From a virus (taxonomy: Duplodnaviria > Caudoviricetes): a stretch of DNA of 64,000 nt. The stretch is taken from the IMG/VR virus record IMGVR_UViG_3300012952_003952, positions 128,001 through 192,000 of that record. One strand, 5' to 3'. The notes under the pieces are model-generated. The model searched no databases, was not told the origin of the DNA, and saw only the letters and a program-made list of their open reading frames with translations. Below are positions 5,537-25,072 of this stretch, piece after piece. The stretch's first letter is position 1. Each line of letters opens with the position of its first letter. Both the position numbers and the translations under genes were made by a program.

Positions 5537-6376
5537 ATGTCGAAACATAACAAGAAAAGAAATGTTGGAATTATCTATGAACAACTCCTTTCTTCTCTTT
5601 CTAAATCTTTAGTAGAAGGAAAAAGTGGAGAAGTTAAAATAGTAAAGGGTTTAATAGATAAACATTTCCGACCAGGCACTGAGCTCTACAAAGAGTTCAG
5701 GCTGTTTCAGGCGATGGTAAAAACCAATGTACCAAGAGAGTCTTTAGCAATAAAGATCTTAGAGGAAGCAAAGAAGGCTTCAAATAATCTAGATTCTAAA
5801 AAGTTGCAAATTGAAAAATCTTTATTAATAAAAGATATAAACCACAAGATAGCTGACGGAAATTTCTACAATCAAAGAGTAAACGAGTATAGAGACTTTG
5901 CAACAGTACAAGTTTTATTAAATCTTTGGAATAAGGGAGATTTATCTTCTTTAAAAACAATTTCTGAATATGAAGCTAAAGTTCAAGAAATGCTACTTTC
6001 TGAATCTAAGCAAGCCATATTAGAAAATGAGAAAACTTCTGAAATAAACAGTTTTACGGTTAAGATAATGCTAGAAAAATTCAATAAAAAATACGATGGC
6101 ACCCTAAATGAAGTTCAGGCAAAAATTATCAAAGAGTACGTGTTTTCTCCTAAGAGCGATCTACTCACTAATTTGCTAAAAGAAGTTAAACAAGATACTC
6201 TTAAAGAAATTGCCAACTTGCCAGAAAAACATAGCAATCAAATTCTCTGCGAAAAAGTAAACAACGTTAAGGGTCAAATATCTAGCTTAAAAGAATCAGT
6301 GCATGATGATGATAATATTTCTCGATTTTTATTGCTTTCTAAACTTTGCACAGAGCTTAAGGAGGAATCACCGTGA
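5537..6376 (+). CDS. hypothetical head-module protein
   Basis: Long helical ORF between portal and protease; ATG at 5537 directly after the portal stop. Confidence 0.65.
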   Translation: MSKHNKKRNVGIIYEQLLSSLSKSLVEGKSGEVKIVKGLIDKHFRPGTELYKEFRLFQAMVKTNVPRESLAIKILEEAKKASNNLDSKKLQIEKSLLIKDINHKIADGNFYNQRVNEYRDFATVQVLLNLWNKGDLSSLKTISEYEAKVQEMLLSESKQAILENEKTSEINSFTVKIMLEKFNKKYDGTLNEVQAKIIKEYVFSPKSDLLTNLLKEVKQDTLKEIANLPEKHSNQILCEKVNNVKGQISSLKESVHDDDNISRFLLLSKLCTELKEESP

Positions 6377-6984
6377 GCGATTCAAAATTACATTTATTGA
6401 CTAGTTGGACCCCGTTTGAATATACTCCAGACCAGATTCAAGAATCTAGAGACCAAAATGGCGGCAAGATTATGATGCGTGGTATTTTGCAAAAAGCTGA
6501 TACGCTTAATCAAAATGGCCGAGTATATCCTAGAGTTATACTAGATAGAGAAGTCCGAAATTATCAGAAATTCATTGCAGAAAATAGAGCGTTGGGAGAA
6601 TGTGACCACCCAGACTCTTCGGTGGTTGAACTCAAAAATGTTTCACATATTATCAGAGAAGCTCACATGGATGGAGATATCTGTTATGGTACGGTTGAAT
6701 TATTAGACACTCCTGCTGGAAAAATACTGCAAAGTTTAGTAGAGTCAGGTGTGACTTTAGGCATATCCTCACGAGGAGTGGGATCCACTAAGTCTGAAGG
6801 AGATCACCAAGTCGTCCAAGATGACTTTCAATTGATATGTTGGGATTTTGTCAGTGAGCCTTCTACCCCTGGAGCTTTTATGATGCGTGAAGGAGTGGAA
6901 GTCAGAAGGTCTGATCTAAATAAACATTTTAATAAAACAGACAGAATTGATAGAATATTTAACGATATTTTAGATTGGGAGTAA
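6373..6984 (+). CDS. prohead protease (T4 gp21-like)
   Basis: NQNGRVYP, GECDHP, GISSRGVGS and DFVSEPSTPGA motifs; GTG start with GGAGG upstream. Confidence 0.92.
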   Translation: MSDSKLHLLTSWTPFEYTPDQIQESRDQNGGKIMMRGILQKADTLNQNGRVYPRVILDREVRNYQKFIAENRALGECDHPDSSVVELKNVSHIIREAHMDGDICYGTVELLDTPAGKILQSLVESGVTLGISSRGVGSTKSEGDHQVVQDDFQLICWDFVSEPSTPGAFMMREGVEVRRSDLNKHFNKTDRIDRIFNDILDWE

Positions 6985-9434: not shown

Positions 9435-11084
9435 ATGAGTAAAAATCTTTATAATGAAGCTATCGCAGAAGCGAAACAACTGCGCGAGATGGCGGAACAA
9501 AACGCAAAAAACAAAATAATCGAAGCAGTAACCCCTAGAATTAGAGCTCTTATCGAACAGCAACTTATGGATGATGTCGAAGAAGAGTCCGACTTAGTAG
9601 TTGGCGAAGAGGGTGTTGCTGAAGACGAAGAAATAGAAATTGCAGTTGCCGACATAACCCCCCTTGCTGCCCCGGCTCCAGAAGTAGAAGCCGCTCCAAA
9701 AGTTTCAATCACAGTACAAGGTGATTTAGAAATGGCGCTTGGAGAAGAAGACAGCGAAGAAGACGAGGATTTGATTTTAAGTCAAGAATCATTCTTACGC
9801 TTAGAGAATTTTTTGCACAATGTGTCAAAAACAAAAAGCTTTTCTGATAGAGTAGTTAGTCTTGCTAAAAGATTTAGCATGCTTAGAGAAGCTATCGATG
9901 GAGTAAATCTTAACAGGTGTACTTCCATTGAAAAACAGACGGCCATTATTTTTTATGGTCGTCTATTAGAGGAAGCTATTATATTATCTGATAATTTAAT
10001 ACTTATGAAAGAGTCCATTGACAATAGACTCGAATTACAATTAACTCAACTAATAAAGGAGATGAGCAATATGTCTAGAAGACGTGACGCAGCAGCTTTC
10101 AGGAGACTCTTTGAAGAGTTAACCAAGGATGAGGGTCTTGAGGAAGTGGGCATGTACGAACAAGAAGAAGAAGAAGTCGAAGTAGAGGACGAAGAGGTCG
10201 TAGACGATGTAGAAGTAGCCGCTGAGCCAGATGTGGATGCAGCTGAAGATGCATTATTGGACCTTGGAGCAGCTCTTGGTCTCGACGTCGAAGTCGAGCA
10301 AGCAGAAGAAGAAGTGGAAGTCGACGTAGAGGAAGAAGAAGAGATCACTCTTGAGGGTGAGCACGCAGATGAAACTGATGAAATGGACGAAGTCTATGAA
10401 ATCGATGAAGCGTCTCTCCGTCGTGAACTTCTTAAAATGAGAAGACTTCGTGAGCAAGAAGAGGGAAGAGCTGCTGAGGCAGATCCTGCACTTGCCCATG
10501 GCGGTGATGATGAAGGAGACGTTATTATTGATGTCGACGAAGATGCTTTATTAAATGCATTGGCTGATGAGCTTGGTGATCCAGGCGTTCCAGAGCCACA
10601 AGTAGAAGCATTCATTCGCCGTAGACTTCGCAGAGCTAGCCGACAGCTAGCAGAATCGCAGAGACGCAACAGAAGAGTTTCTCGTCGTAGATCGGCTAGA
10701 AGAACTTCAGCTCCTGCATCTAACAAAAGAGCCGTTATGGCTGAAAGAACTGTTTCTAAATTAAAGAAGCAGCTTAACGAAATGAATCTTTTTAACGCTA
10801 AGCTTCTATTTGCTAATAAGCTCATGCAGAATCGTGGGCTTTCAACGAAGCAGCAACGCGTAGTCGTCGAGGCACTCGACAAGGCACGCACAATCAGAGA
10901 GGCTAAACTCCTTTATAAGAGTCTTAGCGCATCTCTAAATCGAGGTTCCGGTAAGACTCTATCTGAGAGTCGATCTCGATTGCTCGCATCTTCATCCAAA
11001 TCAACCCGGTCAGGCGCGCCTGCCAAAAGTGGGAATGAGGTAGATCGTTGGGCAGTACTCGCCGGACTTGCTTCCAAAAAATAA
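9435..11084 (+). CDS. prohead core/scaffold protein (gp22-like)
   Basis: Very acidic coiled-coil protein with a basic C-terminal region, immediately upstream of the major capsid gene. Confidence 0.75.
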   Translation: MSKNLYNEAIAEAKQLREMAEQNAKNKIIEAVTPRIRALIEQQLMDDVEEESDLVVGEEGVAEDEEIEIAVADITPLAAPAPEVEAAPKVSITVQGDLEMALGEEDSEEDEDLILSQESFLRLENFLHNVSKTKSFSDRVVSLAKRFSMLREAIDGVNLNRCTSIEKQTAIIFYGRLLEEAIILSDNLILMKESIDNRLELQLTQLIKEMSNMSRRRDAAAFRRLFEELTKDEGLEEVGMYEQEEEEVEVEDEEVVDDVEVAAEPDVDAAEDALLDLGAALGLDVEVEQAEEEVEVDVEEEEEITLEGEHADETDEMDEVYEIDEASLRRELLKMRRLREQEEGRAAEADPALAHGGDDEGDVIIDVDEDALLNALADELGDPGVPEPQVEAFIRRRLRRASRQLAESQRRNRRVSRRRSARRTSAPASNKRAVMAERTVSKLKKQLNEMNLFNAKLLFANKLMQNRGLSTKQQRVVVEALDKARTIREAKLLYKSLSASLNRGSGKTLSESRSRLLASSSKSTRSGAPAKSGNEVDRWAVLAGLASKK

Positions 11085-11109
11085 TATAACAATATAAAGG
11101 AGATTTCAA

Positions 11110-13020
11110 ATGAGCAAGAAATTTACATTGGAGCAGTTAACCGAGGGTATTCGTCAACGTAACGTTGGATCGGGTAACAGTAGGTTAATTGAAAAGTGGT
11201 CTCGCACCGGTCTTCTCAGAGGACTTGAGGGCACTACTCGCGAAAACATGGCGGCACTGCTTGAAAATCAGGCATCCCAGGTTCTTCGTGAGGCTAACTC
11301 AATTTCCACCGGTGGTGGAAACTTAACTTCTTCTGGCGACCTCCGCGGTTTCCAGAACATAGCATTCCCAATCGTCCGTAGAGTTTTCGGCGGCTTGGTA
11401 GCTAATGAGCTTGTATCCGTACAGCCCATGAGCCTTCCATCAGGCCTCCTTTTCTATCTCGATTACACGTATGGAACTAATGTCGGTGGTGCAAATGCAC
11501 CTAAGGGTTCAACTTACGTCTCAGGAACTTCTATCTATAATGCACCTACAGGAAAGGGCGTTCGCTCCGGTTCTCTTGGAATCGGTGGACAGTACAACCT
11601 TGCAGGTTCTGGTTATTCCAGAGTCCACAAAGTTGCTACTAGTATCACTCTCCTCGCTTCTGGCGCGTTCATGGGAGACTCTACGTTCTCCGCAGGTGGT
11701 TCAGGCGCAAGACAAACTCAGCGTATGGTTGCTACTGGTTCTGACGGCAAGCTTCTACAGTTTGACGAGCAGATCTGTAGATTAATTGAAGATAACCCCA
11801 ACGCTGCTGGCGCTGGTGTTTTCAAAGCATACGTTGTTGATTTTGCTTCAGGCAAATTCGCAGATGCCGACACTAGTATGGTCAAAGACTTCGCTCTTAC
11901 ACCAGACGCAGGTGCTAACCCCACAATCCTCTCAAACACTCTGAAGTCAGAAGACGTTCAGGTCAGTGGTGATAACGTCCTTAACGTACGTCGTCTTAAC
12001 CAGTTAGGTAAGTGGAACAATGGTCAGTTCACCGCAGATCCTCTCGTAAAAGCTGGCGATTCTAACGCTGCGCTTCTATTGATTGTTTCTGGTGGTGGTG
12101 GCACTACTGATGCAACCGCTGAGCAGACTTATGACGTTGGTTATGTTCTTAGCCCAAGCTTGAATGCTGGATCTGATGGTGATACCCTTACGATTCCAAC
12201 TTTCGAGTCTAACTTTGCAACTACACCTTCTCCAGAGATCCCAGAGATCGATATCAAGGTAGAATCTATTGCGGTCACCGCGGTAACTCGTAAGCTTCGT
12301 GCTCGCTGGTCACCAGAACTCGCACAGGACCTAAACGCTTACCACAGCCTTGACGCTGAGGTTGAGCTTACTCAGATCCTTTCCGAGCAGATCGCACTTG
12401 AGCTTGACAGAGAAATTCTTAACGACCTTCTCACCCAAGCCAAGACCAACTTCTACTGGTCACGTGCACCTGGTAAGTTCATGAACAAGAGAAGTGGTAC
12501 TCTTATCACTCCCGGAGGCGCTGGTACTATTGGACCAAGCTTCACCGGTACTGTTCGCGAATGGTATGAGACGCTCGTTGAGACTATTATTGATGTTGCT
12601 AACGAAATTCACAGACTCACACTCCGTGGTTCAGCTAACTTCATCGTAGTTTCTCCAGACATCGCAACCATCCTCGAAGCATCCGTCCTCTACCGCCCAA
12701 GCTACAGCTTAGATGGTGATGGACAGGTCGGTACTCCAATGAGTATCGGAGCTGAGAAGGTTGGTACTCTAAGCAACCGCTTCACAGTCTACAAAGATCC
12801 TTACTTCCCACGGAACAAGGTACTTGTCGGATTCAAGGGTGGTAGCTACTTAGAGACTGGTTATGTCTATGCTCCATACGTACCGCTGATCGTTACGCCT
12901 ACTATCTTCGCTCCTGAGGACTTCACCCCAAGAAAGGGTGTTATGACTCGCTACGGCAAGAAGATGGTTCGTTCCGACTTCTACGGTACCGTTACTGTCG
13001 CAGACATGAACGTTATCTAA
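11110..13020 (+). CDS. major capsid protein, copy 1 (T4 gp23-like)
   Basis: LLENQ, FPIVRRVF, VSVQPMSLPSGLLFYL, RKLRARWSPELAQDL, EIL/LDREIL, YAPYVPL and GVMTRYG; AAGGAG RBS. Confidence 0.95.
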   Translation: MSKKFTLEQLTEGIRQRNVGSGNSRLIEKWSRTGLLRGLEGTTRENMAALLENQASQVLREANSISTGGGNLTSSGDLRGFQNIAFPIVRRVFGGLVANELVSVQPMSLPSGLLFYLDYTYGTNVGGANAPKGSTYVSGTSIYNAPTGKGVRSGSLGIGGQYNLAGSGYSRVHKVATSITLLASGAFMGDSTFSAGGSGARQTQRMVATGSDGKLLQFDEQICRLIEDNPNAAGAGVFKAYVVDFASGKFADADTSMVKDFALTPDAGANPTILSNTLKSEDVQVSGDNVLNVRRLNQLGKWNNGQFTADPLVKAGDSNAALLLIVSGGGGTTDATAEQTYDVGYVLSPSLNAGSDGDTLTIPTFESNFATTPSPEIPEIDIKVESIAVTAVTRKLRARWSPELAQDLNAYHSLDAEVELTQILSEQIALELDREILNDLLTQAKTNFYWSRAPGKFMNKRSGTLITPGGAGTIGPSFTGTVREWYETLVETIIDVANEIHRLTLRGSANFIVVSPDIATILEASVLYRPSYSLDGDGQVGTPMSIGAEKVGTLSNRFTVYKDPYFPRNKVLVGFKGGSYLETGYVYAPYVPLIVTPTIFAPEDFTPRKGVMTRYGKKMVRSDFYGTVTVADMNVI

Positions 13021-13035
13021 ACCCTAACAGTGATG

Positions 13036-13061
13036 GGGCGGTGCTCTAACGAGCACCGCTC
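13036..13061 (+). other. GC-rich RNA hairpin between the two capsid genes
   Basis: GCGGTGCTC-TAAC-GAGCACCGC perfect 9-bp stem (13038-13059), extendable with G-U and G-C pairs; no U-tract follows. Confidence 0.7.
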
Positions 13062-13081
13062 TTGATCGGAGAAAATATAAT

Positions 13082-14965
13082 ATGTCTAAAAAATTTACAT
13101 TAGAACAACTAACTGAAGGAATTCGCCAACGTAATGTTGGTAAAGGTAATTCTAAGTTAGTTGAAAAGTGGTCTCGTACTGGACTTCTTCGAGGTCTTGA
13201 AGGTACCACTCGCGAGAACATGGCTTCTCTTCTAGAAAACCAGGCGTCTCAAGTTCTCCGCGAAGCTAACTCAATCTCTACCGGTGGAGGAAACTTAACT
13301 TCTTCTGGTGATTTAAGAGGCTTTCAAAACATTGCGTTTCCAATCGTCCGTAGAGTCTTTGGTGGATTAGTTGCTAACGAACTAGTTTCAGTTCAGCCTA
13401 TGAGCCTTCCTTCTGGTCTGCTCTTCTATCTAGACTATACTTACGGCACAAACGTTGGCGGTAATGATGATGCTGGTGATGAAGCCACTTATCCTTCCGG
13501 AAGCTCTATTTATAACGCCCCAACTGGAAAGGGCATTCGCTCTGGCTCGTTAGGCATAGGTGGACAGTACAACCTTGCAGGTTCTGGTTACTCTAGAGTT
13601 CGCCAAGTTGCCAATACGATTACGATCATGGCTTCCGGCGCATACAACGGAGGATCAACTTTTACTGCTGCTAAGAGATTGGCTGCTACCGGTTCAGATG
13701 GTAAACTTCTTCAGTTTGATCCACAGATCTGTAGGTTGATTGAAGATAATCCCAACGCTGCTGGCGCTGGTGTTTTCACCGCAATGTTCATTGACTTAAA
13801 CTCTACGCAGTTTAGCAATGGTGATCTTAGTATGGTTAAGGATTTCTCTCTTATTCCTTCTGGAACAGGTGGTCTTAACTTCAATGAGATAGCTCAAACG
13901 CTGAAAGATGAAGATATTCAGATTTCTGGAAAGAGAGTTGTTAACGTACGTCGTCTTAATCAATTAGGAAAGTGGGATGGAAGTAACTTCACGCATGATC
14001 CTTTAGTTAAGGCTGGCGATTCTAACGCAGCTATATTGATGATCGTTTCTGGTACTCGAATCATGGCAGATGGTGCAGACATAAACTATGTCTTAGCTCC
14101 AGATTTAAATGCTGGATCTGATGGTGACACTCTTACCATTCCAACTTTTGAATCTGACTTCGCGGCTTCTCCATCTCCTGAAATTCCAGAGATTGATATT
14201 AAAGTTGAGTCAATCGCAGTTACTGCAGTTACTAGAAAGCTTCGTGCTCGCTGGTCACCAGAACTTGCTCAAGACTTGAATGCATATCACTCTTTAGATG
14301 CAGAAGTAGAGCTTACACAGATCCTATCTGAGCAGATCGCTCTTGAACTTGACCGTGAGATCCTTAATGATCTACTTACCCAAGCTAAGACTAACTTCTA
14401 TTGGTCAAGAGCTCCCGGTAAGTTCATGAACAAGAGAAGCGGAACCCTCATTACTCCTGGTGGTGCTGGAACTATTGGACCAAGCTTCACAGGAACAGTC
14501 AGAGAGTGGTACGAGACCCTTGTCGAGACCATTATCGATGTTGCTAATGAGATCCACCGCCTGACTCTTAGAGGTTCAGCTAACTTCATCGTAGTGTCTC
14601 CAGACATTGCAACTATCCTTGAAGCCTCAGTTCTTTATCGTCCAAGCTACAGCTTAGACGGTGATGGACAAGTCGGCAGCCCGATGAGCATTGGCGCTGA
14701 GAACGTAGGTACTCTTTCAAACCGTTTCACGGTTTATAAAGACCCATACTTCCCGCGCAACAAGGTTCTCGTCGGATTCAAGGGCGGAAGTTATCTTGAG
14801 ACTGGATATGTATACGCACCTTATGTACCACTTATTGTCACTCCAACAATCTTCGCACCAGAAGACTTCACACCTCGTAAGGGCGTGATGACTCGATATG
14901 GTAAGAAGATGGTTCGTTCCGACTTCTATGGTACAGTTACTGTCGCAGACATGAACGTTATTTAA
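13082..14965 (+). CDS. major capsid protein, copy 2 (T4 gp23-like)
   Basis: Same gp23 motifs as copy 1; GGAG RBS; different central region. Confidence 0.95.
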   Translation: MSKKFTLEQLTEGIRQRNVGKGNSKLVEKWSRTGLLRGLEGTTRENMASLLENQASQVLREANSISTGGGNLTSSGDLRGFQNIAFPIVRRVFGGLVANELVSVQPMSLPSGLLFYLDYTYGTNVGGNDDAGDEATYPSGSSIYNAPTGKGIRSGSLGIGGQYNLAGSGYSRVRQVANTITIMASGAYNGGSTFTAAKRLAATGSDGKLLQFDPQICRLIEDNPNAAGAGVFTAMFIDLNSTQFSNGDLSMVKDFSLIPSGTGGLNFNEIAQTLKDEDIQISGKRVVNVRRLNQLGKWDGSNFTHDPLVKAGDSNAAILMIVSGTRIMADGADINYVLAPDLNAGSDGDTLTIPTFESDFAASPSPEIPEIDIKVESIAVTAVTRKLRARWSPELAQDLNAYHSLDAEVELTQILSEQIALELDREILNDLLTQAKTNFYWSRAPGKFMNKRSGTLITPGGAGTIGPSFTGTVREWYETLVETIIDVANEIHRLTLRGSANFIVVSPDIATILEASVLYRPSYSLDGDGQVGSPMSIGAENVGTLSNRFTVYKDPYFPRNKVLVGFKGGSYLETGYVYAPYVPLIVTPTIFAPEDFTPRKGVMTRYGKKMVRSDFYGTVTVADMNVI

Positions 14966-14984: not shown

Positions 14985-15020
14985 TGAGGCGGCGTTTTTG
15001 ACGCCGCCTCATTTGTTTTA
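14985..15020 (+). terminator. intrinsic terminator after the capsid genes
   Basis: TGAGGCGGCGT-TTTTG-ACGCCGCCTCA 11-bp stem followed by TTTGTTTT. Confidence 0.85.
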
Positions 15021-15069
15021 TTAAACGTTTAATAAAGCAAGTTATAATATAATCAAATTGGAGTTTATC

Positions 15070-18704: not shown

Positions 18705-21700
18705 ATGGCTGAACAGACCTTCCGTTCTCCAGGGTTTTTTGAACAAGAGATAGATCTTTCGCAGAGAGAGAAGGCTCCTAATGGTACCCCTGCAGGTATT
18801 ATTGGAACCGCTGAAAAAGGACCGGCCTTCGTGCCAGTTACCGTAGGTTCTTTTGCAGATTTCGAAACGAGATTTGGAACACTTGACTCAAACCGTTATG
18901 GTCCCTATGCAGTAAGAGAATATTTAAAAAATAAAGATGCAGTAACTTATCTTCGCGTTTTAGGCGCGGGATCTAATGATACCAGTGCAGAGATAAGCAA
19001 CACAGAAAATTATGGATATGTATCCAAAGCAGGATTCATAGTTTCCGGATCGGCCATCGGCGGATTCAAGGGAGACGTTACCCGAAATGACTTTAGAGAT
19101 AGGGGATACGTGCAATTCCTTTGCGCAAGACATTATCTTTCAGCCTCTGAAGCGAATGTTGGATATCCTATTTTCGATGATAATGATTCATTCCCAGATT
19201 TGAACAAAGCCGCGACTCGTAAAGACTCAACAAACGTAGTTAACTTAGTACGCGGAATGATTTTGCCAACAACTGGCTCTAGAGTCTTAGTTTGTGGATG
19301 GGATCATGAGCTTAAAGCAACTAGCGTCCCAAGAGCAGACGTCGCGTCACGAAATGACAACAAGACTTCTGCTGCCTACAACACCTTTAAGATAATAATT
19401 TCATCTTCTGCGGGTACAGGCTTTGCCAACGATGACAATTTACCGGGCTTGAGAATCTATAGTGCTTCTCTAGATCCAAATAACCAAAATTACATTGGAA
19501 AAGTTTTAAATACTGATCCATGGAAATTCCAAGAGAAGCAACACCTTCTTTGGGCTGATTTCCCCGTAGAGCACGAAGTCGCTCCAGTTTCAAATGTCAG
19601 CGGTTCGATTGGAATCAGTTCCGGATCTGCTGCTACTGCTACTGGAACAAACGCTGTCGATGAGCCGTGGAGAACTTCTTTTGGAAGATTTGACACTAGA
19701 TACCAAACACCACAAACGCCTGCGATTATATCACAGCCTTTCGGTAACCTCGAGTATGACTTGTTCCACTTTGAGTCTTTGTCTGATGGTGCATATGCAA
19801 ACTCTAAACTGAAAGTGTCTATTGCCAATGTCCGGGCCTCTACTGATGAATCTAACCCATACGGAACATTCGAAGTTCAGCTTAGAAAATTCGATGACAC
19901 CGACATGGCTAGAGAGATCGTAGAGCAGTATCCAGAATGTACTCTAGATCCAAATGATGATCGCTTCATCGGCCGCCAAATTGGAGATAAGAAAGTTTAT
20001 TTCGACTTTGATGCAGACGATCCAGAAGAGCGCAGGCTCGTAATGGGCGGAAAATATCCAAATGTATCTGCGAACATTAGAGTAGTAATAAATGACGCAG
20101 TCTACAGAGGCGATGTACCAAAAGAATCTGTTCCATTCGGTTTCCGTGGAATTCCAGTCTTAAAGACCACTGATAGTTTTACAGATCTTTCTGATAAGCT
20201 TATCACTGGCTGGGAAGGCGATGATATTGGATCTTCTGGAACTAGAACAGCTCTAGTCACCGGTGATCATGGTAGTGGTTCTTGGGGACACGGTCTTACT
20301 GGATCTATCCTTCCACCACTTCCCTACAGGTTCAAGTGCACTAGAGGACTAGTAAAAGCTTCTCCAAGCTTCTCCGGAGAGCCTGGCAAGAATGAAAGAG
20401 CAGACTCAAGACTATATTGGGGCTCAATGCCCACAAGAGTACCACTGACAGGATCAGTTACTTCCGCCTGCTTAGACGCAAACGTTGGAAGTACGGTAAA
20501 CGAACTCGTTAGAGGTTATACTACCTTCCAGGGTATCGTGAAACTAGATAACTTAGTTACTGGCTCCGGTGCAGATGCTTTCAATAACAATAAGTTCACG
20601 CTAGCAAGAGTGGCACTTTACAATACTGAAACTAACCTAAGCAAAATCACGGGTTCTGCTGCAGAGCATATGTTAGATGCCGCTTATATAAGAAATGGAA
20701 TCTATAGTGCCACTGATTATACCATCAGCGATGGTGTCCGGGCTGGAAGGTTGACGTTGGCGACTCTAGTTAACTCTAGTTCTATTAAGTTCAATCGATT
20801 CCAAGATTATGCTAAGTTTACTATGCCATTCTTCGGTGGATTCGACGGGTTAAACGTTCTAGACAAAGATAGTGCTTTAATGAACGACCGTTCAGCTTCT
20901 ACTGATCCTAAGGGATTAGCTGGAGACGATCCTCCCGGAGGAGGCCTCGGACTGGCAAACACTGAAAATGGTGGAATGTCCGGAAGAGATAGACAAAACA
21001 ACGCAGTTTTCTCTTACAGAAAAGCTGTTGAAATAATGACTGATCCAATGATTGTTAACACTAACATCTTGGCCGTTCCAGGCATTAGAGATCCATACAT
21101 CACAGACTTAGCTTCAGATAGAACAAGAGATTATTCTATGGCTATATACCTCATGGATATTCAACACTACGACGAAGATGAAAACAGACTCTATAATTCT
21201 GATTCTGCAAAGAGAGATGTTAGAGAAACTGCTGAGCAGTTCGAAAGCCGTAGAGTTAATAACAACTATGTCGCTACATACTTCCCAGATGTTTATATTG
21301 ATGATCCAATCAACAATAGATCTGTACAAGTTCCATCTTCCGTAGTTGCTCTTGGAGCTTTGGGTTACAACGATACTGTTTCTTATCCTTGGTTCGCACC
21401 TGCTGGATTCAACAGAGGCGCGCTAGATAATGTTAGAAACACAGTTGTAAGACTAACGGCTGGAGACCGAGACGAGTTGTATGACGCTAGAATTAATCCA
21501 ATTGCGAACTTCCCAAGTGGCGGATTCGTTATCTTTGGACAAAAGACACTACAACTCGCGAAAAGCGCTCTAGACAGAGTAAACGTTCGCAGAATGTTGC
21601 TGGAAGTCAAGAGACTCGTTGTACAAGTCGCAGATCGACTGCTCTTCGAGCCGAATACACCAGCCACAAGAGCTAAGTTTACTTCGCAAGTAGCACCAAT

Positions 21701-21887
21701 CCTTGCTTTAGTGCAATCTCAAGCAGGTATAGAAAAATTCGCGGTTGTTATGGATGACACCAATAATACAGCGGAAGATATTGAATCAAATAGACTAAAT
21801 GGTAGAATCGTCGTCGTACCTACGAGATCTATCGAATTCATCGCTATCGACTTTATCATCACAAATAGTGGCGTGTTGTTCTTGTAG
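18705..21887 (+). CDS. tail sheath protein 1
   Basis: N-terminal SPGFFEQEIDLS; C-terminal WFAPAGFNRG, RINPI, FGQKTLQ, DRVNVRR, FEPN and IEFIAIDF. Confidence 0.92.
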   Translation: MAEQTFRSPGFFEQEIDLSQREKAPNGTPAGIIGTAEKGPAFVPVTVGSFADFETRFGTLDSNRYGPYAVREYLKNKDAVTYLRVLGAGSNDTSAEISNTENYGYVSKAGFIVSGSAIGGFKGDVTRNDFRDRGYVQFLCARHYLSASEANVGYPIFDDNDSFPDLNKAATRKDSTNVVNLVRGMILPTTGSRVLVCGWDHELKATSVPRADVASRNDNKTSAAYNTFKIIISSSAGTGFANDDNLPGLRIYSASLDPNNQNYIGKVLNTDPWKFQEKQHLLWADFPVEHEVAPVSNVSGSIGISSGSAATATGTNAVDEPWRTSFGRFDTRYQTPQTPAIISQPFGNLEYDLFHFESLSDGAYANSKLKVSIANVRASTDESNPYGTFEVQLRKFDDTDMAREIVEQYPECTLDPNDDRFIGRQIGDKKVYFDFDADDPEERRLVMGGKYPNVSANIRVVINDAVYRGDVPKESVPFGFRGIPVLKTTDSFTDLSDKLITGWEGDDIGSSGTRTALVTGDHGSGSWGHGLTGSILPPLPYRFKCTRGLVKASPSFSGEPGKNERADSRLYWGSMPTRVPLTGSVTSACLDANVGSTVNELVRGYTTFQGIVKLDNLVTGSGADAFNNNKFTLARVALYNTETNLSKITGSAAEHMLDAAYIRNGIYSATDYTISDGVRAGRLTLATLVNSSSIKFNRFQDYAKFTMPFFGGFDGLNVLDKDSALMNDRSASTDPKGLAGDDPPGGGLGLANTENGGMSGRDRQNNAVFSYRKAVEIMTDPMIVNTNILAVPGIRDPYITDLASDRTRDYSMAIYLMDIQHYDEDENRLYNSDSAKRDVRETAEQFESRRVNNNYVATYFPDVYIDDPINNRSVQVPSSVVALGALGYNDTVSYPWFAPAGFNRGALDNVRNTVVRLTAGDRDELYDARINPIANFPSGGFVIFGQKTLQLAKSALDRVNVRRMLLEVKRLVVQVADRLLFEPNTPATRAKFTSQVAPILALVQSQAGIEKFAVVMDDTNNTAEDIESNRLNGRIVVVPTRSIEFIAIDFIITNSGVLFL

Positions 21888-21928: not shown

Positions 21929-24900
21929 ATGGCTGAATTAACTTTTAAAAGTCCAGGGGTATCAACTAGGGAGATAGATCTTTCTGGTCCCACTTCGGTT
22001 GCACCCCAGGGAACCCCAGCAGGAATAATCGCTACAGCGAACCAAGGACCTGCCTTCGTTCCTGTAACTGTGGCGACTTATCAAGACTTCGTTGCTACTT
22101 TTGGACAGTCAAACGGTGAAATGTTTGGTCCGCTAGCAATGAATGAGAGGATGAGAAACGCAAAAGCGGGAACCTATTTAAGGGTTCTTGGTGTAGGAGA
22201 CGGTAAAAAGAGGCTTACTTCTGATTCTACCGACGCAGCTGGAGCCAACATCTATGCGGGAGCAGTTAAAAATGCTGGCTTCATTGTTGGCCAAAAGCAG
22301 GTTAACGACAAAGGTAGCTTAGCAACCAACCCGTTCGCATATGATTACGGCTTGTCAGGCGCAACCTACATGTTGGGATGTTTGATGTCAGAATCTAACG
22401 GTTCTTCAATCTTCTCAGATGCGGGATTACAGCATAAGACGAAAGCTCATAAAAACGCTGGATCAAAAGCGATCCCAATTTTGCGAGCTGTAGTGATGGT
22501 AGCATCTGGAGTTACTATTGGTCTATCTGGAAACCTTGATGGAAATCTCAACACGGTAGTGACAGCTTCTACTGCTGGATCTACTGGAATATTCTCTGCA
22601 TCTGCAGATGGAGGATACAGTTGGGGAGAAATCGATGTGCAATCGGCAAACCATTATAACTTTATAATGTTGTTGAATGGCCATAAGAGTACAGCCCAGT
22701 ATCCCAACACGATTACCGCTTCCATGTCACCATGGAGTCCATCCTATTTTACTAACGTGTTCAACACAGACCCAACGAAGATCCAAGATGCTGGTTACTG
22801 TATGTATGCCCACTATGACATCGCTCCTACCATGGCGGTTGTTACAGGCTCTGGTATCGTTTCGACGACTCACTGGTCTGGATCATACTCAGCTCAAAAT
22901 ACTGAGCCGGCTATATTCGCTTTCACGTCTTCTATGGGCCCTAACGCCGGAAGCACCACGAAGCCAAACTATGAAAACTTTAGTGACAGGTTCCGTACAG
23001 CGAAAAGCCCTTGGGTTGTATCTCAACAGTACGGTGGCCAAAACAGAGACTTGTTTAAACTGCATTGTCTAGATGATGGCGCTTATCCAAATACACTCAC
23101 AAAAATCTCGATTAGTAACTACAAGAAAGCAGAAAAAGATACTGATTATGGTACTTTCGACCTGATGGTAAGAGCGTTTGGAGATACGGACAGCGAGCCT
23201 GAAATTCTTGAATCTTATATGGGAGTAGATCTCAACCCAGGATCTGACAACTATATCGCTCGTCGAATTGGCGATATTCATCGATATTTTGACTTCGACC
23301 ATGCTGCTGCTAGCCAAAAACTTGTAGTGGAGGGAACACACCCGAATATGAGCAAGTACGTTAGAGTTCAAATGCACGGAGAGCTAGAAGCTGGAAACAT
23401 TTCAACCACAGCTCTTCCAGTTGGATACAGAGGTCCTCACCACTTAGTTACTTCTGGTTCGAGTATTTTCAATGGAGGGTATCCCAACCATCCGACCGTT
23501 ACCGGATCTAATGCAGATAGCGGTTTTCATCACGTGAAAGCTAAAAACTCGATTATCGGTGAAACTGCTATTGCTGCAATGGTAGAACCTCCAATTCCGT
23601 ACAGACTCTGCATCTCTAACAATAAAGGAGACAAGAGGACTGCTAACTCAAGCTACTATTGGGGAGTTCAATTTACTAAACAGGACAAACTTTACAACAA
23701 TGATAGTAACTCAAGCAGGATTCTTGATCCCTCTTTAGCTTCTTACACTAAATACTATCCAGTGTTTGCCACTGGCCAGCGCTCTGTTTCGGTTGGAGAC
23801 AACGCTGGAACAGTAGACAGCTCAGGTACTGTTCTAGATTCAGACAAGTTCAATAATAACCTTTTCACTCTAGAAAAAGTACAAGTTCATACCAAGTCGG
23901 CATCTGAAGATAAGGTTGATTCTAAAGAGTGGGCTTTCGCAGTTTATCGAAGAAACGGCGTCTTGTCTTCTTCGCTGATGAAATCTGACGGAACATATAC
24001 CCAGGGAAGATTCTTAAATGTATCTAAAGACTTTGGAGATATTGCTTCTCGTAAGTACATGAAATTCACATTCTTCATGCAGGGAGGATTCGATGGAGTC
24101 AACATCTTTAACAAAGATAAAGCACAGCTCCTAAATGCTGCCGCAATGAGAGAGATGGATGATGAAAGCCAAGGATTTTCATCCGGTCCAACTGTTGCAA
24201 CTTATAGAAAAGCAATCGACGTTATGTCCGAAAAATCAGACTCAGACATTATGCTCTTAGCGATTCCAGGTATTCGTGAAACGAACATTACTGACCACGC
24301 GATAGATCAGACTGAAGCTAGATTCGATGCCATGTATATCATGGATATCGAAGAGAGAGATACCCTGAACAACAAGGTTACTGGATCTGTAGAGGTTGTT
24401 GGAGTAAACAACACTATTACAGACTTCAAATCTAGAAATCTAGATAGTTCTTTCGCGGCGGCCTATTTCCCTGACACATATATTACAGATCCACACACCA
24501 ACACTATCGTTCGCTGTCCACCATCTGTATCAGTCATTGGAGCTATGTCTCTAAACGATAAGGTTGCATTCCCATGGTATGCACCAGCTGGTTTCACTCG
24601 AGGAGCTCTGTCTTCAACTCTCTACTCTCACGTTAAACTAAGTAGAGCTAACTTAGACACCATTTATGATGGAGACGTTAATCCGATCACAGCATTCCCA
24701 ACTTCAGATGGAGTTGTAGTCTTTGGTCAGAAAACTCTGCTTCAAGCAGCTAGCGCACTCGATAGAGTTAATGTTAGAAGGCTTTTGATTGACATTCGTA
24801 GAAAAGTCAGAAAAATTGCCGATACGTTCCTATTTGAACCTAACCGAGCAGATACTTTAGCTAGATTCTCAGCTTCAGTTAGTCCAGTACTCACCAGAAT

Positions 24901-25072
24901 TCAACAGCAACAAGGGCTTGATAAGTTCAAGGTGCTGATTGATACCACCACCACTACGCAAGCGGATGTAGAAAATAATACCATTAGAGGAAAAATATTC
25001 TTACAGCCAACCCGCAGTGTTGAATTCATCTCATTAGATTTCGTTGTTACAAATAATGGAACAGAGATTTAA
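21929..25072 (+). CDS. tail sheath protein 2
   Basis: SPGVSTREIDLS, WYAPAGFTRG, FGQKTL, DRVNVRRL, FEPN and VEFISLDF. Confidence 0.92.
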   Translation: MAELTFKSPGVSTREIDLSGPTSVAPQGTPAGIIATANQGPAFVPVTVATYQDFVATFGQSNGEMFGPLAMNERMRNAKAGTYLRVLGVGDGKKRLTSDSTDAAGANIYAGAVKNAGFIVGQKQVNDKGSLATNPFAYDYGLSGATYMLGCLMSESNGSSIFSDAGLQHKTKAHKNAGSKAIPILRAVVMVASGVTIGLSGNLDGNLNTVVTASTAGSTGIFSASADGGYSWGEIDVQSANHYNFIMLLNGHKSTAQYPNTITASMSPWSPSYFTNVFNTDPTKIQDAGYCMYAHYDIAPTMAVVTGSGIVSTTHWSGSYSAQNTEPAIFAFTSSMGPNAGSTTKPNYENFSDRFRTAKSPWVVSQQYGGQNRDLFKLHCLDDGAYPNTLTKISISNYKKAEKDTDYGTFDLMVRAFGDTDSEPEILESYMGVDLNPGSDNYIARRIGDIHRYFDFDHAAASQKLVVEGTHPNMSKYVRVQMHGELEAGNISTTALPVGYRGPHHLVTSGSSIFNGGYPNHPTVTGSNADSGFHHVKAKNSIIGETAIAAMVEPPIPYRLCISNNKGDKRTANSSYYWGVQFTKQDKLYNNDSNSSRILDPSLASYTKYYPVFATGQRSVSVGDNAGTVDSSGTVLDSDKFNNNLFTLEKVQVHTKSASEDKVDSKEWAFAVYRRNGVLSSSLMKSDGTYTQGRFLNVSKDFGDIASRKYMKFTFFMQGGFDGVNIFNKDKAQLLNAAAMREMDDESQGFSSGPTVATYRKAIDVMSEKSDSDIMLLAIPGIRETNITDHAIDQTEARFDAMYIMDIEERDTLNNKVTGSVEVVGVNNTITDFKSRNLDSSFAAAYFPDTYITDPHTNTIVRCPPSVSVIGAMSLNDKVAFPWYAPAGFTRGALSSTLYSHVKLSRANLDTIYDGDVNPITAFPTSDGVVVFGQKTLLQAASALDRVNVRRLLIDIRRKVRKIADTFLFEPNRADTLARFSASVSPVLTRIQQQQGLDKFKVLIDTTTTTQADVENNTIRGKIFLQPTRSVEFISLDFVVTNNGTEI

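Follow-up and report, generated by a model that had tools for sequence, protein, structure and literature searches.

Why does a tailed phage carry two major capsid genes side by side, whose products are nearly identical at both ends and clearly different in the middle? This question is raised by positions 11110 to 14965 of a 64,000-nucleotide stretch of viral DNA (the window), which comprises bases 128001–192000 of the 241,978-bp IMG/VR virus record IMGVR_UViG_3300012952_003952 (57% complete according to CheckV). The source is an uncultured marine T4-like jumbo phage, and the tandem pair is found in a sub-clade of such phages; the nearest cultured phages have about 47% identity, and none closer was found. 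The shell of a tailed phage is taken to consist of a single major capsid protein (MCP), gp24 of phage T4 being the classic exception. Here, the first capsid gene is called c1 and the second c2, WIN denotes the window genome, and L003 and similar labels denote related loci. Our analysis revealed that both genes are kept under purifying selection and differ chiefly in a single insertion domain, and it suggests that their products may enter the same shell as interchangeable subunits. The features on which the argument depends are the following.

9435..11084, + strand: acidic 549-aa protein, probably the scaffolding protein (T4 gp22 position); open reading frame (ORF) adjoining c1 upstream
11110..13020, + strand: c1, Gp23-family major capsid gene, 636 aa, the ancestral-type copy (ORF, Pfam, PHROG, tree)
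11485..12180, + strand: predicted E-loop insertion domain region of c1 (residues 126–357), c1 type (comparison with c2 and L003, structure prediction with AlphaFold2 (AF2))
13035..13062, + strand: G+C-rich 12-bp intercistronic hairpin lacking a U-tract (folding energy, kept in lineages)
13082..14965, + strand: c2, second Gp23-family major capsid gene, 627 aa, the derived copy (ORF, Pfam, PHROG, tree)
13457..14125, + strand: predicted E-loop insertion domain region of c2 (residues 126–348), c2 type (type-diagnostic residues and indels, AF2)
14985..15021, + strand: intrinsic terminator 3' of c2, 12-bp stem followed by TTTGTTTTAT (terminator and fold scans)

Two capsid genes that differ in one domain

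Both ORFs are intact and are separated by a spacer of 61 nt. A Pfam search gave Gp23 (PF07068) with 256 bits for each of the two products (cut-off 24.4; E~1e-75), and both copies match PHROG 138, 'major head protein' (E~1e-70). The family profile matches the solved, HK97-fold T4 gp23 chains 5vf3, 6uzc, 8t9r and 8gmo with E~1e-34 over residues 316–607, with a second matching stretch at residues 73–196. In the whole 241,978-bp record, c1 and c2 are the only Gp23-family loci.

The two proteins are 85% identical overall (BLASTP), and the differences are unevenly distributed. Residues 1–125 are collinear and 96.8% identical with four changes, and residues 358–636 are 98.2% identical with five changes, whereas residues 126–357 are only about 66% identical and contain four indels. 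A first-pass annotation made from the sequence alone had described two full tandem capsid genes with a near-identical core, a diverged middle, unequal lengths (636 and 627 aa) and many synonymous changes, and this description was borne out, as were the 5' ends that it quoted. Its idea that the central insertion had been swapped did not hold, because the middle is one homologous domain that has diverged at positions variable throughout the family.

Nei-Gojobori counts between c1 and c2 gave pS 0.81 and pN 0.039 in the N-terminal part, pS 0.60 and pN 0.24 in the middle, and pS 0.74 and pN 0.029 in the C-terminal part. Silent sites between the two genes are fully randomised. The resulting omega is about 0.01–0.02 in the core and about 0.1–0.25 in the insert, both between the paralogues and between orthologues of each type (insert orthologue comparisons: pN 0.17, pS 0.63–0.72). 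Both copies are under purifying selection throughout, which is extreme in the core; the first-pass annotation had proposed such selection on both copies. Of the 383 core residues that are identical, 163 are encoded by the same codon in both genes, with 156.9 +/- 8.1 expected from synonymous shuffling (z = 0.75). The silent sites are thus saturated and not more different than chance. Selection for nucleotide divergence as a protection against repeat recombination was also considered and was rejected, because the same-codon count is not lower than the shuffled expectation. The two copies have unequal G+C contents at third codon positions (GC3), 0.44 and 0.35.

The tandem in related genomes

The same arrangement was found in at least four lineages and more than 10 contigs, which come from JGI, ENA, TARA and GenBank-style records and from different assemblers. 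Besides the window, it occurs in the species represented by L003, L004, L005, L009, L010 and L089 (632 and 629/630 aa), in L007 and L008 together with a 106-kb JGI contig (635 and 629 aa), and in L090, L091 and L098 (TARA and GenBank-style records). The junction itself is bridged by an exact 629-nt contig (12960–13588) from run X1, which is probably the source run. It is also bridged, with 98.5% identity, by contigs of 791 and 774 nt (12787–13577) that come from two RNA libraries made in a separate, independent study. A chimera of two strains, which the first-pass annotation had named as a possible objection, is contradicted by these contigs across 13020–13082 and by the wide occurrence of the tandem. 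The junction also exists in a second, closely related strain. Contig sets from the RNA libraries cover both genes, with depth alike over c1 and c2 and lower past the terminator; this depth was not used, because contig depth cannot rank genes.

Two low-depth contig joints, 11576>13572 in X1 and 12815>14804 in X3, connect corresponding sites in c1 and c2, leaving out about 1990 nt. They were considered as deletion variants and rejected, because their sides lie in shared words of only 20–23 nt; they are probably artefacts of the assembly graph. The same joints would arise from rare single-gene c1/c2 hybrids formed by unequal crossover.

A single MCP gene is present in the sister locus L006 (84% identical) and in 36 more distant loci with full flanks. 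This comparison of copy number in related genomes, which the first-pass annotation had proposed, places the tandem in a defined part of the family. A maximum-likelihood (ML) tree gave the topology (L006,(c1 of WIN, c1 of L003,(c2 of four lineages))) with support of 99–100 and a c2 clade supported at 100. This topology points to one duplication inside the lineage after its split from the single-copy sister, rather than to capture from afar. In a tree of the insert only, the c2 clade has support of 100/99, and a clade of WIN_c1 with WIN_c2 is rejected (p-AU 1e-7). The c2 stem branch of the insert tree measures 0.29 against about 0.07, and c1 lies close to L006, so that c2 is the derived copy. 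The duplication took place once in the sub-clade and is retained by every sampled member. The ancestral insert type persists in c1, whereas the c2 insert diverged fast after the duplication and has since been conserved.

Conserved cores and gene conversion

Two processes appear to keep the cores alike. One is a constraint shared by the whole family. In an alignment of 62 homologues with 68–89% identity to c1, the number of invariant columns exceeds 250, almost all of which lie in the core, and residues 1–125 of both copies hold the invariant L-x-E motifs at 50–52 and 59–61. Much of the identity between the two cores is also a family-wide property.

The other process is gene conversion. Across the three or four genomes compared, the core of about 400 positions contains 0 sites diagnostic for c1 or c2, and 4–6 sites unite the paralogues of one genome against the other genomes. 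A tree of the core pairs WIN_c1 with WIN_c2 (69/41) and L003_c1 with L003_c2 (64/77), and forcing a c2 clade on the core costs 25.8 lnL (p-AU 0.06). In the L003 pair, the two copies match without interruption over stretches of 56, 53, 48 and 44 nt (P<0.0005), and same codons are in excess with z=8.8. In L007, the lineage-specific residues T551, I571 and I573 occur in both copies with identical codons. The WIN pair shows only faint traces, i.e., one identical run of 32 nt (P=0.03) and final 60 nt that are nearly identical. Gene conversion appears to account for at least part of the core likeness, with tracts that are clear in L003. One anecdotal site, Ser24, hints at parallel change, being encoded by AGT in c1 and TCT in c2 where the relatives have Arg (AGA).

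Taken together, these comparisons indicate that the HK97 core and the putative N-terminal propeptide region are matched by extreme purifying selection acting family-wide and by occasional short gene-conversion tracts. The family-wide constraint, the gene conversion and the age and clade-wide distribution of the pair had been missed in the first-pass annotation.

The insertion domain

The diverged middle corresponds, judging from its place in the sequence, to the hypervariable E-loop insertion domain native to the Gp23 family. This 'E-loop insertion domain' is the most variable part of gp23 homologues (PMC4621102), and in the 62-homologue alignment the positions that differ between c1 and c2 are those that vary across the family. 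The insert region of c1 is 74% identical to that of its L003 orthologue versus 66% to that of c2. Within the insert, 6–12 sites are diagnostic for c1 or c2 in the three or four genomes, and type-specific indels are also present. All c2 orthologues share LNSTQ-FSNGD, FTHDPL and a shorter SGT loop. A side observation concerns residues 238–244 of c2 (~13793–13813), where the N-S-T sequon within [DQ]-[LM]-N-S-T-Q occurs in all four c2 orthologues (WIN, L003, L007, L090); c1 and L006 have S-G-K or S-A-K at this site. That the c2 insert might be a glycosylation target is pure speculation.

AF2 models gave a predicted local distance difference test (pLDDT) score of 80–90 for the insertion domain of c1 (approximately residues 170–350) and of 80–94 for that of c2, and scores below 50 for the core. 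The poor core is probably due to the alignment, whose 62 sequences are shallow in diversity. With the predicted structure as query, the top Foldseek match was the T4 head entry 7vrt with an E of only 0.066, and one 523-aa viral protein in BFVD was matched with E=5e-13. When the insert (residues 170–350) was searched against the PDB with Foldseek, in a wide VIA-align search and against BFVD, nothing was found above noise (best Z 4.5). In the Atlas, the structural relatives of the insert were other Gp23-family proteins only (TM 0.64). A new fold for the insertion domain was considered and set aside, as the structure searches give no evidence of one.

A strain recovered in the RNA-library runs X2 and X3 allows the insert to be compared with its surroundings (insert regions 11614–12350 and 13579–14256). 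The flanks of both genes in this strain are 96.6–98.5% identical to the window. Its c2 insert is 92.3% identical, a difference of 7.7% versus 1.5–3.4% in the flanks, and its c1 insert differs by more than 8% and falls under the 92% threshold. The insertion domains thus change faster than their flanks even between near-identical strains. At the 92% threshold, 11669–12170 has no RNA-library cover, which says only that the strain differs there.

Expression signals and codon bias

The spacer between the genes contains a 12-bp hairpin with a minimum free energy (MFE) of -24.2 kcal/mol (z = -5.1), followed by GGAG (13068–13071) and the c2 start. Apart from the hairpin and this ribosome-binding site, the 61-nt spacer has no U-tract, no promoter-like site and no invertible or switchable sequence. 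The hairpin is present in all tandem lineages, and 3 of its 12 pairs are preserved through double changes. A single terminator follows the pair, 3' of c2. The same kind of terminator, with a GGGCGGC stem and a long U-tract, lies 3' of c2 in every tandem genome, L003 and L007 among them, and 3' of the single MCP gene in L006 and L093. The spacer hairpin resembles the MCP terminator stem of the single-copy relatives, minus the U-tract. In the simplest reading, we infer that the duplicated unit comprised the gene together with its terminator and that the inner copy of the terminator lost its U-tract, which would allow read-through into c2.

The T4 late promoter TATAAATA has 3 matches in the window versus 4.9 expected, none of them upstream of the pair, and a scan of the window for sigma-70-type promoters revealed nothing relevant. 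An A/T-rich, ATATAAT-like word precedes the ribosome-binding sites of c1 (word at 11085–11100) and of the gene that follows c2 (word at 15040–15056) by 15–30 nt, and it recurs at the corresponding position after the MCP terminator in L003, L006 and L007. This word may be the late-promoter element of the clade.

Codon bias was measured as C/(C+T) at NNY codons. By this measure, c1 reaches 0.67, which is the window maximum and equals the value of L006, and c2 reaches 0.52 against a background of 0.38; the tail sheath genes have 0.47–0.50 and the portal gene has 0.33. In each of the three complete pairs, c1 has a stronger bias than c2 (p=0.017, 0.26 and 0.0004). The order c1, c2, background led us to regard c1 as the major form and c2 as an abundant but lesser one.

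The role of the second capsid protein

We consider, with a probability of about 0.5, that both proteins co-assemble into a single shell in which either can take the place of the other, so that two insert types are displayed and c1 predominates. One late transcript would start upstream of c1, run through the terminator-derived hairpin that lacks a U-tract and end at the terminator after c2. The c1 and c2 proteins would then enter the same prohead lattice as interchangeable subunits, c1 being more abundant than c2, and the capsid surface would display two kinds of insertion domain. A further proposal, to which we give somewhat less than even odds, is that the pair represents a two-component HK97 lattice in which selection for compatibility together with gene conversion matches the cores while the surface domains are kept apart.

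Several points weigh against co-assembly. That c2 enters the virion, and at which position, is a prediction from sequence. Codon bias is no more than a proxy for expression, and neither transcription nor the ends or levels of transcripts can be proved from the RNA-library contigs. Concerted evolution of the core has modest support (p-AU 0.06; bootstrap 64–69), and gene conversion can yield a concerted core even where there is no selection for co-assembly. An insertion domain located at the periphery of the capsomer could be enough to steer c2 to special lattice positions. Finally, the cores of both proteins are poorly modelled (pLDDT <50).

The main competing explanation, which we consider unlikely but better than the other rivals, is that c2 is a young analogue of T4 gp24 that is specialising for the eleven pentameric vertices or for the hexamers that surround them. 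The altered insertion domain would then suit the sharper curvature at the vertices. Like gp23 and gp24 of T4, the two phage proteins form a Gp23-family pair, predicted from sequence homology to have the HK97 fold, that originated by duplication of a capsid gene, and the second gene lies directly downstream in the head block. The order portal, protease, scaffold, g23, X, neck and sheath is that of T4, where X is gene 24, and here c2 starts 61 nt after c1. T4 gp24 itself is thought to derive from a duplication of gp23 (PMC9958956). No gp24 homologue lies beside the MCP gene in the single-copy relatives, and the record contains no third Gp23-family gene. The long stem of the c2 insert is what would be expected of a new function, the codon bias of c2 lies below that of c1 in all lineages, and the hairpin may attenuate read-through.

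However, the pattern of divergence is unlike that in T4, as the first-pass annotation had also maintained. T4 gp23 and gp24 are only about 20% identical throughout (PMC9958956), whereas the core and N-terminus of the phage pair are 97–98% identical, have no type-specific residue and leave the E-loop insertion domain as the only part that differs. In T4, the A domains are tuned to hexamers or pentamers, and gp24-bypass mutations map to the A domain (PMC9958956); in the phage pair, the C-terminal 279 residues are 98.2% identical, and neither the A nor the P domain has a type-diagnostic residue. The propeptides of T4 also differ, with 65 residues in gp23 and 10 in gp24 (PMC9958956), whereas the N-terminal 125 residues are collinear here and 96.8% identical. 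In addition, the codon bias of c2 equals that of the sheath genes, is well above that of the portal gene and exceeds the expectation for a protein of 55 copies.

It is improbable that c1 and c2 serve as alternatives by host, condition or infection stage, i.e., as bet-hedging of the capsid surface in which each particle would be mainly of one type. The positions that differ between c1 and c2 are the most variable ones across the family and between close strains, as would be seen under diversifying pressure. However, the spacer offers no promoter-like, invertible or switchable sequence through which one gene could be chosen, the only terminator comes after c2, and the same RNA-library contig sets cover both genes, with a contig across the junction.

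Still less probable is a capture of c2 from a co-infecting, diverged relative through recombination, instead of duplication in place. At silent sites, WIN c1 and c2 are randomised to the same degree as the most distant family members (z=0.75 against 2.5–4.9), and the difference in GC3 would also fit a foreign origin. However, the c2 clade is nested within the clade that contains c1 and the single-copy L006 (support 99–100), no free-standing c2-type MCP was found among the 120 database homologues listed or in about 160 loci, and the spacer hairpin resembles a copy of the gene's own terminator.

An assembly artefact that joined two co-occurring strains, or a duplicate of which one copy is decaying, is very improbable: the metagenomic origin and the short low-depth c1–c2 joints at shared words could suggest it, but the same arrangement recurs in contigs from varied sources and assemblers, contigs bridge the junction, orthology holds copy by copy, and no lineage has a broken frame in either gene (omega ~0.05).

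Neighbouring genes

The pair lies in a T4-type head and tail block in the order TerL, portal, head maturation protease (6373–6984), the acidic 549-aa protein, c1 and c2, neck adaptor and tail sheath; all of these except the 549-aa protein were assigned by PHROG matches. Pfam and PHROG searches gave no match for the 549-aa protein. In the relatives, ORFs of 552–580 aa occupy the same slot upstream of the MCP gene, and synteny with the portal and protease genes upstream makes this protein the probable scaffolding protein.

In the single-copy relatives L092 (3084–4157) and L093 (6226–7299), an extra gene for a 357-aa protein lies between the MCP block and the neck gene. The L093 protein has a faint Tubulin Pfam match, and the window has no such gene at that place.

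The tail sheath genes of the window are also in tandem. They lie on the plus strand at 18705–21887 (1060 aa) and 21929–25072 (1047 aa), their products are 34% identical over the full length, and both match the tail-sheath PHROGs 23 and 10581. Together with the capsid pair, this means that duplicated genes encode both of the main lattice-forming proteins of the virion. Of the two pairs, that of the sheath is far older.

Relation to other capsids and significance

Paralogy of head genes in the Gp23 family is already known from T4 genes 23 and 24. In the literature on tailed phages, we found no description of tandem MCP genes that have near-identical cores and distinct inserts, and the 'moraphage' paper (PMC12619734) makes no mention of tandem MCP genes. 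Outside the phages, the Family 2B encapsulins Sl-Enc1 and Sl-Enc2 of Streptomyces lydicus are reported to be HK97-fold paralogues encoded in one operon that co-assemble into mixed shells of variable composition (Dutcher, Andreas and Giessen 2024, PMC11071501). The phage pair resembles them in having two paralogous shell genes, which are here predicted to form one operon from the single terminator, the spacer with its hairpin and ribosome-binding site, and the bridging contigs. In contrast, an encapsulin is a small T=1-type bacterial nanocompartment that has no DNA packaging, scaffold or protease. By analogy only, Family 2B encapsulins are the nearest demonstrated model for the proposed mixed shell. 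Giant eukaryotic viruses such as chloroviruses and mimiviruses also have large capsids with several paralogous capsid proteins, some of which occupy special lattice positions. These proteins have a double jelly-roll fold and not the HK97 fold, are diverged throughout, and are usually encoded at dispersed places in the genome.

If co-assembly of c1 and c2 is true, the phage would have a genetically encoded capsid surface of two types, for which we found no description among tailed phages. The gp24 exception of T4 is too old for its steps to be read. The present pair would be either an early, legible stage of a gp24-like path or a different solution that uses two interchangeable bricks. Among viruses, it is a clear example of region-specific concerted evolution. 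For capsid engineering, the pair marks a site where a different domain of about 200 residues is tolerated while the rest of the lattice stays unchanged. As a natural experiment, it also bears on the question of which parts of an HK97 protein must match for co-assembly, i.e., the core and the putative propeptide, and which are free, i.e., the E-loop insertion domain.

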